DNA of 33,626 bases from the IMG/VR virus record IMGVR_UViG_3300025381_000060, positions 1-33,626 of that record. One strand, 5' to 3'. The notes beneath the pieces are model-generated. The model had not been told where the DNA came from and searched no databases. It worked only from the letters and a program-made list of their open reading frames with translations. Below, in pieces: positions 4,882-21,096 of the stretch. Within the stretch, counting starts at the first letter, position 1. Each line of letters starts with the position of its first letter. Position numbers and translations under genes: made by a program. The stretch comes from a virus (Duplodnaviria > Caudoviricetes).

Positions 4882-4911
4882 ATTGTACTACTGAAAGAAG
4901 GCTGGTAACAA
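4882..4911 (-). promoter_or_regulatory. promoter for the C4-like RNA and replication genes
   Basis: TTGTTA(4911-4906)-N18-TACAAT(4887-4882); the predicted start coincides with the RNA's 5' stem. Confidence 0.55.
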
Positions 4912-5088
4912 ATCTTTTCTAGTGACTAACCCTATAGTCGCTTCCTCAATCCTTATTGCCAGTTTGGGAGATGGGTTGCGTTTTCCATGGATTATCAATG
5001 ACAACCATGTGGTACTGATACCCAAATAGTCAGCCATCTCTTTGACCGCTCCTAGCGGCTCTTCTTTAAAGTATTCTTCCAAAGTCAT
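4888..5088 (-). CDS. Cro-like (YdaS/Cro family) HTH regulator
   Basis: 66 aa from MTLEEYF (AAGGA RBS); EMADYLGISTTWLSLIIHGKRNPSPKLAIRIEEATIGLVTRKDLLP is the YdaS/Cro signature. Confidence 0.85.
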   Translation of the reverse strand: MTLEEYFKEEPLGAVKEMADYLGISTTWLSLIIHGKRNPSPKLAIRIEEATIGLVTRKDLLPAFFQ

Positions 5089-5107
5089 TTTTTTTATCCT
5101 TGTGTGC

Positions 5108-5325
5108 TGTTGGTGTCCTGCCTTGAACATTAACGCAGGTTGCCAGTCTCAGGCTTTCGCCACACCAACACGGCTGGAGACTGCACTTAAAGTCGGAACG
5201 CGTCCCACAGCTATGCATCGCTTCAATCCCCATGCGTCTTGGTGTTGGCGTTCACATAAAGCAGTGACGAGGTTGCACAACACTTCTAAGAATTGCCCTC
5301 ACGGCGCTAACCCGCTTCGCCAACA
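5108..5325 (-). ncRNA. structured RNA leader of three interlocking stem-loop units
   Basis: Stems TGTTGGCG/CGCCAACA (5243-5325), CCAAGACG/CGTGTTGG plus TGGGGATTG/CAGTCTCCA (5165-5242), and TGTTGGTGT/ACACCAACA enclosing GGC-GAAA-GCC and CCTGC/GCAGG (5108-5170). GC-richer than its flanks and begins at the predicted transcription start. Confidence 0.65.
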
Positions 5326-5331
5326 GTTGTA

Positions 5332-5360
5332 AATTTACCATAACTTTTAGTTAATAACAA
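5332..5360 (-). promoter_or_regulatory. leftward promoter with operator (5340-5354) in the spacer
   Basis: TTGTTA-N17-TAAATT with extended -10 TG; the spacer carries ATAACTTTTAGTTAA (+ strand). Confidence 0.7.
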
Positions 5361-5379
5361 CCCTTCAGACAAAAAGGGT

Positions 5380-5408
5380 TTAACTTTTTATTAAAACCAT
5401 GATACTAT
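5380..5408 (+). promoter_or_regulatory. rightward promoter with operator (5380-5394) over the -35
   Basis: TTAACT-N17-TACTAT with extended -10 TG; TTAACTTTTTATTAA overlaps the -35. Confidence 0.65.
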
Positions 5409-5658: not shown

Positions 5659-5750
5659 ACGAACATAAATTTTTTGAACTTTTTTCGCGTGTGATCTTTT
5701 TGATTGCACTTGTAGTAATTTTCTTTGATTTAACTTTTTGGAGACCATGA
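5655..5750 (+). CDS. small membrane peptide (31 aa)
   Basis: Not in the ORF track; MNEHKFFELFSRVIFLIALVVIFFDLTFWRP with ATGA overlaps at both ends. Confidence 0.65.
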   Translation: MNEHKFFELFSRVIFLIALVVIFFDLTFWRP

Positions 5751-5965
5751 TGGACAAAAAAACACAAGATGACAACATTAAAAATTTAGATTTAAACGCA
5801 AAAATAAATCGTTTTTTATTGTTGGACAACATAACAAAAATCAGTCATTTAACAGATAAATCAGAAGGTGATTTGTTAAATACAAAGAATCTTGGGAAAG
5901 TATTTGTTCAGCAAATCAAAACTGCATTAAATCAACGTGGATTGAAATTAAGGGGACAGCAATGA
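5747..5965 (+). CDS. stand-alone RNA polymerase alpha-subunit C-terminal domain-like protein
   Basis: Aligns without gaps to RpoA CTD: NLDL......L....I..I..L....E.DLL.T.NLGK.....IK..L..RGL.L. Confidence 0.8.
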   Translation: MMDKKTQDDNIKNLDLNAKINRFLLLDNITKISHLTDKSEGDLLNTKNLGKVFVQQIKTALNQRGLKLRGQQ

Positions 5966-19065: not shown

Positions 19066-19087
19066 AAGGGGCTTCGGCCCCTTTTTT
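19066..19087 (+). terminator. rho-independent terminator, possibly bidirectional
   Basis: AAGGGGC-TTCG-GCCCCTTTTTT with an A-rich left flank, between convergent genes. Confidence 0.85.
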
Positions 19088-20036
19088 ATACCCTGATCAC
19101 TTGTCCTCTAAACTCAATGTGGTCCTTGTCATAAACCTTAACCACCTCAGGCCACAATAGATTGCCCTTGTGGAAAGTTAAAATTACAAACCCAGAACGC
19201 CAATTAGTAGGTGCGTGTTCTAAGTAATTCTCAAATTGGGGTCCAGAAGGTTCTGCAAGAGTTCCCGTATCTACACCGTATCGTGTTCCGTTATAGTCAT
19301 CATAAGGTGTGACTTTTAGGCTATGTAAGTGCCCCGTCACCATAGAAACACCAGCATTCAGCGTATTGGCGTGGGTAGCGTGGATTCCACCCTTCCAACG
19401 ATGCTTAACCACAACATTTTGATTTAACCATACTGACCAACAGGGATGCCATGCAGGAAAATGGTCTTTTAGGCTAAAGCCTTTGATGTGCTCATATTGA
19501 GGGGCATTTGCGGCCAAACGGTTCTCAAAGCGAGCATCGTGGTTACCAAGAGGCCACATTAACTTAACATTTTTGTTAACTTTTTTGGCTTCGTCTTCTA
19601 TCTCACCCAGAGCAATCTCACACGCCCTAACTTCATCAATAAGACTAGGGGTTTTGTCCCAGCCGATTCTGGGAAACCTGCTAATTGAAGCGCCATCAAA
19701 AGCGTCACCATTATTGATTACCGCCTTGACATTTTCTAAATTCTTGATAGCCCAAATCAAACCATCATAAGCAGTGGTACGAATACCGGGCCAAAAGTGT
19801 GCGTCAGAAAAAACAATGACTGTGCCATTGAGTATTCCTAAATCGAGTTGTGGGGGCTTTGGCTCAACCCTGTTCTTAACCTCTACGGTTTCTAATTGGA
19901 TCTCATATCGGCCCTCTAAAGCGTTTCTACGAGCATATATCGACCTTTCAGACATACCAAGTTCGGCGGCCATAACGCTCGGACTTTTGTACATCTGAAA
20001 CAACATGATAAATTCTTCGTCAGAGTAATACTTCAT
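19086..20036 (-). CDS. calcineurin-like metallophosphoesterase with N-terminal HTH
   Basis: Motifs SDAH, GDAFD, GNHD, KHRW, GHLH; N-terminal MAAELGMSERSIYARR. Confidence 0.85.
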   Translation of the reverse strand: MKYYSDEEFIMLFQMYKSPSVMAAELGMSERSIYARRNALEGRYEIQLETVEVKNRVEPKPPQLDLGILNGTVIVFSDAHFWPGIRTTAYDGLIWAIKNLENVKAVINNGDAFDGASISRFPRIGWDKTPSLIDEVRACEIALGEIEDEAKKVNKNVKLMWPLGNHDARFENRLAANAPQYEHIKGFSLKDHFPAWHPCWSVWLNQNVVVKHRWKGGIHATHANTLNAGVSMVTGHLHSLKVTPYDDYNGTRYGVDTGTLAEPSGPQFENYLEHAPTNWRSGFVILTFHKGNLLWPEVVKVYDKDHIEFRGQVIRV

Positions 20037-20452
20037 AATTTCTTCCTCCAATAGAGTGTGCCCTTAGCACCCCAAGGGATGGAAGGATCGTACAGTTTAA
20101 AACCACAAGAAATGAGAGAATTTGAAGAGGCTGGGTTGTCAAAGGTGTTAGTGATTAACCACGCCCAACCCATCTTTTTAGCGTATAGCTGACGGACTCG
20201 AATAAGTCTTTTCTGCGTTCCTCGTCCACGAGCGCTAGGGGTAACACCAGCACGACATAGATAGCCAGTATCAGTCCACCGAGCAGAGCGAACAATCCCT
20301 GCAAAACCAATAGGCTTCCCTTCCTGATAAGCCACCCACCAAGCTCCATCAGAAATGTCGTACGGTTTATCATAGGGAAGACAGTCCTTTTGAAGCTTGT
20401 TTAGTAGCTCAAAGTTTGCTTGAACAGTGGTGTCTATCTGCTTGATTTTCAT
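20033..20452 (-). CDS. GNAT-family N-acetyltransferase
   Basis: PIGFAG, acetyl-CoA-binding motif A (GVTPSARGRGTQKRL), NPASSNSLISCGF. Confidence 0.85.
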   Translation of the reverse strand: MKIKQIDTTVQANFELLNKLQKDCLPYDKPYDISDGAWWVAYQEGKPIGFAGIVRSARWTDTGYLCRAGVTPSARGRGTQKRLIRVRQLYAKKMGWAWLITNTFDNPASSNSLISCGFKLYDPSIPWGAKGTLYWRKKL

Positions 20453-20502
20453 GCACTACCCTGCTGAATTTGCTCGGATGTTAATGCATGGTTAAGGCAC
20501 AA

Positions 20503-21096
20503 TTATGACAATACTTGGAGTGCCTGTTGTATTAAGTGGATTCTTTCTTGCAAACCAAAGGTCCCACCATTGATGCGTTTTGTTAACCCTTCCCAGTTCT
20601 CTGCCTCTGCAAGTTCATTGCAACCGTGGGTCTTCCAAAACCAACCTGCTGAGAGAGCGGCATACATAGGGGTGGCTACCAGCTCTGGTTTAGCTACCAT
20701 ATTTTGGTTAATATTTTGACCAAAATGCCAGTAGTTATCGTGTCCAGTCAACTGAATACATCCACGGCCGTGAAATCGCCATCCATCTCCTGACGATTCG
20801 TCTCTGTTTCCCATTCGGTTAGCATAAATGCGATTGGCAATTTTCTCTGCTTTATGGGCGTAAACAGGTATCTCTTCTGGTTTGAACTTGTGACCAAACA
20901 AGGCTTGAAGGGTTTCTGGTCGATAGTTGAGATTTTCTTCCAGTGTTTTGAAGTGGTTGCACTCGTGTGAACACTGCCCAATAAATGAAGCCTGCTTACG
21001 TACATCATCAATTCCAAACGTAGAAAAGGTGGTAGTTAAAGGCTCAGACCATTCAGATCCAATCCCCAAAGCATGGAGTTTTTCAGGGCTTAACAT
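20503..21096 (-). CDS. endolysin, glycoside hydrolase family 19
   Basis: FIGQCSHEC, LEENLNY, IANRIYANRMGN, DGWRFHGRGCIQLTGHDNY, SAGWFW, TKRINGG. Confidence 0.9.
   Translation of the reverse strand: MLSPEKLHALGIGSEWSEPLTTTFSTFGIDDVRKQASFIGQCSHECNHFKTLEENLNYRPETLQALFGHKFKPEEIPVYAHKAEKIANRIYANRMGNRDESSGDGWRFHGRGCIQLTGHDNYWHFGQNINQNMVAKPELVATPMYAALSAGWFWKTHGCNELAEAENWEGLTKRINGGTFGLQERIHLIQQALQVLS

Follow-up and report, generated by a model that had tools for sequence, protein, structure and literature searches.

RNase III sites of the T7 early RNA (R1.1-type) are intercistronic hairpins which end in short loops and part protein genes, and in the E. coli 16S stalk the cuts lie 33 and 115 nt beyond the mature ends (PMC1540722, PMC3867540 and PMC3985665, cited from excerpts). 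In the excerpt of PMC1540722, the distal box is given as U-A/U.G and the proximal box as G-C, A-U or U-A, A-U, A-U or U-A; one set of boxes suffices, G-C at the last proximal position blocks cleavage and G-C as the first middle-box pair lowers reactivity to 0.36. Conservation of the distal box does not extend across substrates or species, and RNase III can also bind without cleaving (PMC3867540, excerpt). The small phage RNAs P1/P7 C4, P4 CI and phi80 M3 have an acceptor-like stem and are excised from a longer transcript; in C4, RNase P cleaves at the foot of the first stem, and the loops act on the target mRNA (PMC5320573, PMC5499578, excerpts). Phage transcripts with tRNA clusters contain orphan structured RNAs, namely T4 RNAC and RNAD (PMC9697503, excerpt) and, near phage tRNAs, ROOL and GOLLD (PMC5737381, excerpt). 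The PeSL cassettes of T4-type phages are small repeated promoter-terminator units flanking ORFs, whose common sequence can drive modular shuffling (PMC2839356, excerpt).

The window, i.e. the whole stretch of 33,626 nt analysed here, is a linear virus fragment estimated to be 61% complete. On its minus strand, between a promoter and a cro-like gene, lies a leader (5325-5108) that is, with near certainty, built from three structured, interchangeable RNA modules set in a row. In our preferred reading, which the comparison of homologues makes probable, the leader is a three-module array whose constant hairpin serves as a host RNase III site cutting the transcript into separate small RNAs. Processing at T7-type sites is an established principle; what is new is the array with its exchangeable RNA cargos. 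No description of such an array was found by searching the literature by topic and sequence string, together with seven supplement files of PMC10690425. The sequence strings returned irrelevant papers only; single modules could occur in files 1 and 2 of PMC10690425.

The predicted σ70-type promoter (5332-5360, minus strand) consists of the −35 element TTGTTA (5360-5355), a spacer of 17 nt and the −10 element TAAATT (5337-5332), with a predicted start at 5325 or 5324. The earlier note had proposed such a leftward promoter starting at about 5325, on the first base of a stem. The sequence agrees with the consensus at 8 of 12 bases and is absent from the sites listed by a consensus promoter scan of the window; support for it comes from homologues: 21 of 22 nt are common to the window and the cro promoter of four sister loci (L042, L049, L052 and L060), and a TA...T hexamer ends 6 nt ahead of the stem in 35 of the 79 unit 1 homologues that stand first in an array. 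A short palindrome (5341-5353) between the −35 and −10 boxes may have an operator role and, together with an inverted repeat between the divergent promoters (5359-5380), is a candidate operator for the cro-like protein. Downstream of the leader, the Shine-Dalgarno sequence (5101-5096), which is outside the conserved stems, precedes a cro/YdaS-like helix-turn-helix (HTH) gene of 66 aa (4888-5088, minus strand; phrog_35 with E 9e-11), after which comes a DUF1376 replication gene (4774-4019, minus strand); for this pair of genes, PF15943 and PF07120 scored above the cut-off. A cI gene, the lack of which had been noted for this switch, was indeed not found among the 22 ORFs scanned, although these come from a record that is only an incomplete fragment. 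A DNA search against 50,697 annotated phage records gave no match to the leader, and cro-like and ssb-like queries found little beyond an identical record.

Compensatory changes show conservation of both the modules and the hairpin. The covariation of stems in homologues, which had been put forward as a check, was found in all three modules, and the leader stems are judged real because homologues covary, not from energy alone: the folding energy is modest, with a z-score of −2.05 for the whole leader and −1.31, −2.15 and −2.39 for the units. The proposal that no named RNA family can be assigned holds, since Rfam gave 0 matches for the window at the gathering threshold and only two irrelevant ones for the leader at E up to 10. 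With 20 + 20 array loci, Rfam returned tRNA, tmRNA and sub-threshold matches only. ARAGORN found 0 tRNA or tmRNA genes in the window, nor was the combination of D, anticodon and T arms seen. Coding by the overlapping ORFs 5066-5233 and 5042-5332 is not supported, the lengths of array inserts being evenly distributed over the three frames.

Unit 1 (5243-5325, minus strand), which represents cargo family A, occurs as a pattern in about 600 viral stretches. The 8-bp stem from U5325 to A5243 is present as previously read, with GUUGGCG (5324-5318) paired to CGCCAAC (5250-5244) and followed by ACCA (5243-5240). The unit is not the long bulged hairpin suggested before. It folds as a cloverleaf of four arms in which two loops make contact, made up of the closing stem, a hairpin with a 7-nt loop (5315-5301), a variable arm (5300-5267) and a hairpin with an 8-nt loop (5266-5253). 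The closing stem reaches at least 7 bp in 108 of 111 units, compared with a mean of 34.6 (maximum 44) after swapping flanks. At the loop-loop position, A-U was found 60 times, G-C 12 times and any other combination 0 times in 72 units from loci outside the scan for the family A pattern, and an intramolecular kissing pair between the two hairpin loops is predicted. A pseudoknot reading was dropped in favour of the two hairpins in loop-loop contact.

Unit 2 (5242-5165) consists, as had been noticed, of two stacked stems. Its constant part, module B, is formed by a 5′ arm (5224-5242) and a 3′ arm (5165-5183) on the minus strand, which enclose a folded insert of 20-104 nt in the family. At three hairpin positions left free by the scan, 30 of the 34 non-consensus units are fully paired (shuffle mean 5.9, maximum 13). 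The folding energy of unit 2 is −28.5 kcal/mol on the sense strand and −17.3 kcal/mol on the opposite one. Because this covariation holds and G.U pairs sit on the transcribed strand only, we regard the constant hairpin as a real RNA structure.

The RNase III box register was set on a T7 hairpin whose record is without a label and which we take to be R1.1. Its GCAA loop and pair identities fit the numbering of PMC1540722 (excerpt). In the window the distal box comprises U5225-A5182 and U5226.G5181, and the proximal box lies at 5176-5173. Among 145 units, U-A and U.G of the distal box were found in 141 and 127, respectively, and G-C and U-A at proximal positions 1 and 2 in all 145. All four box pairs occur together in one register in 123/145 units, in 0 units in 25 other registers and in 2 of 327 background helices (about 0.6%), a comparison equivalent to roughly a single post hoc trial since most of these units were chosen by a 14-mer and share ancestry. 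A search by hairpin shape only, on the cargo strand of 234 loci selected by their cargo, yielded 61 hairpins, 25 of them diverged. The strict core was present in 43/61 and in 15/25 of the diverged ones, 10/25 being without it; the distal U-A and U.G were kept in 56 and 50 of the 61, and proximal positions 1 and 2 in 55 and 59. The position at which G-C blocks cleavage (proximal 4) is free of G-C or C-G in 144/145 units and in 61/61 shape-selected hairpins. Proximal position 3 is an A.G mismatch in the window and in 139/145 units and A-U in 4/145, and the optimal A-U appears in 15/25 diverged copies. The first middle-box pair of the window is G-C, which is mildly unfavourable, and the helix above the predicted cut has 11 positions, 9 paired and 2 mismatched, against a minimum of 11 bp; the T7 hairpin also has a C.U there.

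The same register is present in the T7 hairpin and in the E. coli 16S stalk ends (+33/−115), and the likeness extends from the distal U-A/U.G with A-U below it to the proximal G-C plus A/U pair and the weak pairs next to the cleavage site. From this register, cleavage is expected at 5171/5170, one base ahead of unit 3, which would leave U-GUUGG, the same start as that of promoter-initiated units. Processing of the constant hairpin by host RNase III is likely, with cleavage predicted from sequence. The proposal of a precursor cut into several small RNAs is thereby supported, the boxes in the constant hairpin being the evidence. Unlike the T7 sites, the array hairpin parts non-coding modules, holds a folded insert and overlaps the stem of the next module.

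In Y RNAs, a constant stem carries effector modules. The constant hairpin might similarly be a protein-binding handle, held by RNase III without cutting or by another host or phage protein, which carries or stabilises the cargo RNAs. The near-invariant sequence round the internal loop exceeds the usual needs of RNase III, there are mismatches at proximal positions 3-4, and uncoupled RNase III binding motifs are described (PMC1540722, excerpt), all of which would suit such a handle. However, diverged copies vary in the lower stem and internal loop and keep the RNase III boxes, the cleavage-blocking position is never G-C in the shape-selected set, and no Y RNA model of Rfam matched the window, leader or array loci. 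We consider the handle unlikely and processing by RNase III the better account of the hairpin.

The insert of the window's hairpin (5184-5223, minus strand) is a separate cargo family. It folds into a hairpin with a palindromic loop (5218-5213), a second hairpin (5208-5192) with a palindromic loop (5203-5198) and an 8-nt tail, and was found in 49 viral stretches representing 41 distinct contexts with several different closing stems, its sites being the hairpin loop, GUUGG slots, other stems and the intervening segment of a tmRNA. The last case is a phage two-piece tmRNA of betaproteobacterial type (L477:358-712), in which the excised intervening segment contains the unit 2 interior, closed there by another stem. 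The central 4-mer of the first loop is palindromic in 9/9 distinct sequences with 6 different cores; these loop positions were left free by the search, and 61/767 background loops are palindromic. A palindromic loop kept through sequence change is a signature of self-pairing between copies, which suggests that this cargo is a candidate for self-dimerisation. Kissing hairpins of the HIV-1 DIS type likewise keep a self-complementary loop core through sequence change. The unit 2 interior differs from them in being a 3-bp stem within a three-way junction of a phage small RNA, with dimerisation as a candidate property.

The pseudo-ToxI of phage phiTE sets a precedent for a decoy RNA by which a phage counters host defence (PMC3475682, PMC8860590, excerpts), and the unit 2 interior has short stretches in common with ToxI and with this mimic. 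A ToxI pseudoknot was nevertheless rejected, as covariation supports two hairpins instead. In contrast to ToxI, the interior is a single copy with no tandem 36-nt repeats, its closing stem takes up the bases that stem 2 of ToxI would need, and the Rfam ToxI model did not match the leader at E up to 10. In a comparison made post hoc, the best similarity score of the family (25) was reached by 16/500 shuffles and its median by 3/500; the window copy scored 18 and four unrelated cargos scored higher, 27-29. Mimicry of ToxI by this cargo is accordingly doubtful. On a Lelliottia plasmid (NZ_CP077334.1, L509:331-510), the repeats that precede a toxN-family gene match the phiTE pseudo-ToxI without a difference over 59 nt, which suggests that the phiTE mimic derives from a natural ToxI variant.

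Unit 3 (5108-5170, minus strand) was correctly recognised in the earlier note as a junction with a GAAA tetraloop (5169-5109). Its closing stem encloses the GAAA-tetraloop hairpin (5161-5152), a conserved linker and a hairpin at 5139-5117. The GAAA hairpin and linker are conserved among homologues, and the second hairpin covaries in L528, L557 and L550. One compensatory event indicates that the linker may pair with the loop of the second hairpin. The unit follows a predicted promoter directly, without module B, in L549 and L557; it stands ahead of a cro-like gene in L094 and ahead of a small terminase gene in L327 and L331. Features of the HDV/theta ribozymes were also used for comparison, and this topology was rejected for unit 3 since it needs pairing of the GAGACUG segment, which is not conserved.

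The family to which these modules belong is large. The 5′ 14-mer of unit 2 occurs in an estimated 1,100 or so viral stretches, and the 3′ arm accompanied it in 103/133 sampled matches; a metagenome scan gave an estimate of about 440 stretches. The pooled loci contain 262 distinct hairpins in 221 loci, in which the constant hairpin (5242-5165 in the window) alternates with slots closed by GUUGG/CCAAC. The 457 distinct inserts, 236 from the hairpin loop and 221 from the following slot, fell by BLAST into 204 clusters with 129 singletons. Five clusters span both slot types, and comparison of the loci establishes that modules move between slots.

The inserts are diverse. Nine of the 221 slot inserts are tRNA-shaped with odd anticodon or D arms, one of them scoring 34.3 bits; they occupy the slot after the hairpin (L045, L124, L128, L139, L170, L177, L189, L197 and L403), use GUUGGUG as acceptor strand and are extended by long insertions in either the D loop or the anticodon arm. 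A recurrent slot cargo (L097, L136, L137, L143, L149 and L158) has facing GAA and AGUA strands, presumably similar to a loop E/sarcin-ricin motif. The loops of the two hairpins of a large cargo cluster (23 members; slots of L129, L136, L153, L203 and L436) look complementary, so that this cluster appears to be a second intramolecular kissing family. An ARAGORN tRNA lies on the same strand within 300 nt in 13/220 loci, and in L348 and L451 the constant hairpin begins 2 nt past the end of such a tRNA, the tRNA's CCA apparently serving as its 5′ arm. The arrays thus resemble the small RNAs of phage tRNA clusters in being orphan structured RNAs of phage transcripts, sometimes beside tRNAs. They differ in having a constant linker and about 200 clusters of swappable inserts, and most arrays are without a tRNA nearby.

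The leader had been proposed to be a cis-acting conformational switch controlling cro and replication. Among 80 loci gathered via the replication protein, 15 non-identical ones have a cro homologue, and an array precedes cro in three of these (L006, L007 and L036), which would suit a cro-linked device. Nine of the 15 leaders were inspected and have no array, and three further ones gave no motif match. In the four sister loci that share the promoter, the cro start follows about 21 nt past the −10 box with no array between, and because they reach it in this way we regard the array as an insert at the promoter-cro junction. A survey of downstream genes covered 118 locus-strands, 55 with an ORF by the criteria used, 47 of these ORFs being distinct. 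Their PHROG matches were small terminase (10), HTH regulators (5), the phrog_858 starvation-inducible regulator (5) and one each for large terminase, helicase, polymerase, replication protein and ParB; 2 belong to unknown families and 20 had no PHROG match, among them L176, cro-like by eye. The phrog_858 genes, starvation-inducible (Dps-like) and first after the array, are those of L100, L104, L144, L145 and L258. The survey makes clear that arrays are not tied to cro and sit ahead of many unrelated genes, with half as many HTH regulators as small terminases.

The overlap of units 2 and 3 at 5170-5165 is real and family-wide, and it fits ordered maturation better than regulation. The complementarity of GAGACUG (5150-5144) and CAGUCUC (5183-5177) exists in the sequence, yet the pairing is complete in only 4 of the 11 closed homologues scored, these four including the window's own sequence and two near-duplicates; it is also missing in five further hairpin-preceded units, and forcing it costs about 8-9 kcal/mol relative to the unit-wise folds. 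The long-range pairing of the 5′ GUUGG with the 3′ CCAAC near the cro Shine-Dalgarno sequence, pointed out before, is in fact the computed minimum-energy fold of the uncut leader, 6-10 kcal/mol below the unit-wise folds in a model which ignores folding order and tertiary contacts. This pairing arises because all slots share the same ends. In both the free folds of minimum energy and the downstream product expected from the cut, the Shine-Dalgarno sequence stays unpaired, and no terminator-like site was found between the array and cro. Neither a fold hiding the Shine-Dalgarno sequence, nor a terminator fold, nor a fixed class of downstream gene, by which a riboswitch or attenuator would be recognised, was seen. 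A cro-control device is unsupported by these results, and we consider it highly improbable.

In a further reading, the units are antisense immunity RNAs matured by RNase P like P1 C4 and P4 CI, and would serve to repress phage genes where the switch has no cI. Unit 1 does have a 7-bp stem plus ACCA, a U precedes the slot stem in 262/262 cases (partly by selection), some cargos are tRNA-shaped, and hairpin-like phage RNAs are RNase P substrates (PMC5499578, excerpt). The NCCA, however, follows the stem in only 9/81 upstream units and 5/228 downstream units, and in 3/60 units of a further sample; the ACCA of the window arises because the hairpin's own 5′ arm begins with CCA. RNase P would have no leader to remove because the stem of unit 1 begins at the predicted start site. 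No C4 model matched at E up to 10, and the longest antisense match between a unit and the rest of the 61% complete record was 12 nt, a length reached by 54/100 shuffles. Moreover, the conserved loops pair intramolecularly, and a search of 185,579 prokaryotic genomes gave 2 matches, each on a short MAG contig, a result that offers no hint of a function in lysogeny. The array units differ from C4, CI and M3 in all these respects, and those RNAs form one family, whereas the array carries many unrelated cargos. Maturation of this kind is not borne out, and we regard an antisense role as very unlikely compared with separate RNAs released by RNase III.

Hundreds of inserts between constant arms, together with the same promoter-cro junction with or without an array, could also mean that the arms are mainly sites of DNA-level exchange or mobility (PeSL-, Correia- or attC-like), the RNA folds being secondary; PeSL cassettes mediate shuffling in T4-type phages (PMC2839356, excerpt). 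G.U pairs confined to one strand, RNA tertiary covariation of the cargos and the absence of an integrase among the ORFs scanned in the window speak against this, and we assign it a very low probability. PeSLs flank ORFs, while in the array RNAs are what is shuffled and the constant part probably acts as a processing hairpin. Cargos may nevertheless be swapped by recombination in the constant arms.

In the processing model, transcription would begin at the first base of unit 1, the constant hairpin would fold during synthesis and RNase III would cut at 5171/5170 as in the T7 early RNA. The upstream product would consist of unit 1 and the hairpin-capped unit 2 interior, which a possible second cut at 5235/5234 would also free. 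The downstream product would start with U-GUUGG and refold into unit 3, which would either stay at the 5′ end of the cro message as a hairpin or be trimmed off. Since the strand 5169-5165 serves both as part of the hairpin 3′ arm and as the 5′ strand of unit 3, unit 3 would mature only after the cut. The hairpin base overlaps the stem of the next slot family-wide; the cargo stem is the more stable in 42/95 cases (median +0.5 kcal/mol), so that the alternatives are nearly equal and a cargo stem always outcompeting the hairpin base is ruled out. Cargos would be exchanged by recombination in the constant arms and act in trans, probably in conflict with host defences, which is the least certain step. 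A role as compact protein-binding decoys or scaffolds acting in trans is a tentative lead; it fits cargos which have a compact tertiary fold, can be exchanged and do not depend on the gene that follows.

The window contains three structured RNA families and a linker, all without an Rfam match. If processing holds, each slot would be a small RNA gene, which would give some 200 candidate phage RNA families at once and raise the question why phages keep a supply of orphan RNAs, tRNA-like ones among them. The processing step is testable, as it makes a single-base prediction (5171/5170) with known loss-of-function changes, and the linker could serve as a compact part for obtaining several folded RNAs from one bacterial promoter. 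More speculatively, and in our estimate rather doubtful as a whole, RNase III linkers and acceptor-like stems might make up a plug-and-play array, an accessory gene system of RNA only, in which one promoter yields a panel of folded RNAs, taken from a common pool of hundreds, that counter host defences as decoys or scaffolds. The panel would include tRNA mimics, kissing-loop folds and self-dimerising modules, and would be an RNA counterpart of an anti-defence island.

Elsewhere in the window, metallophosphoesterase, GNAT acetyltransferase and GH19 lysin genes follow one another at 19086-21096 (minus strand). In the rightward early operon, an ORF of 75 aa (5738-5965, plus strand) matches PF03118, the C-terminal domain of the RNA polymerase alpha subunit, with 35.3 bits (cut-off 23.8) and is possibly a stand-alone mimic of this domain.
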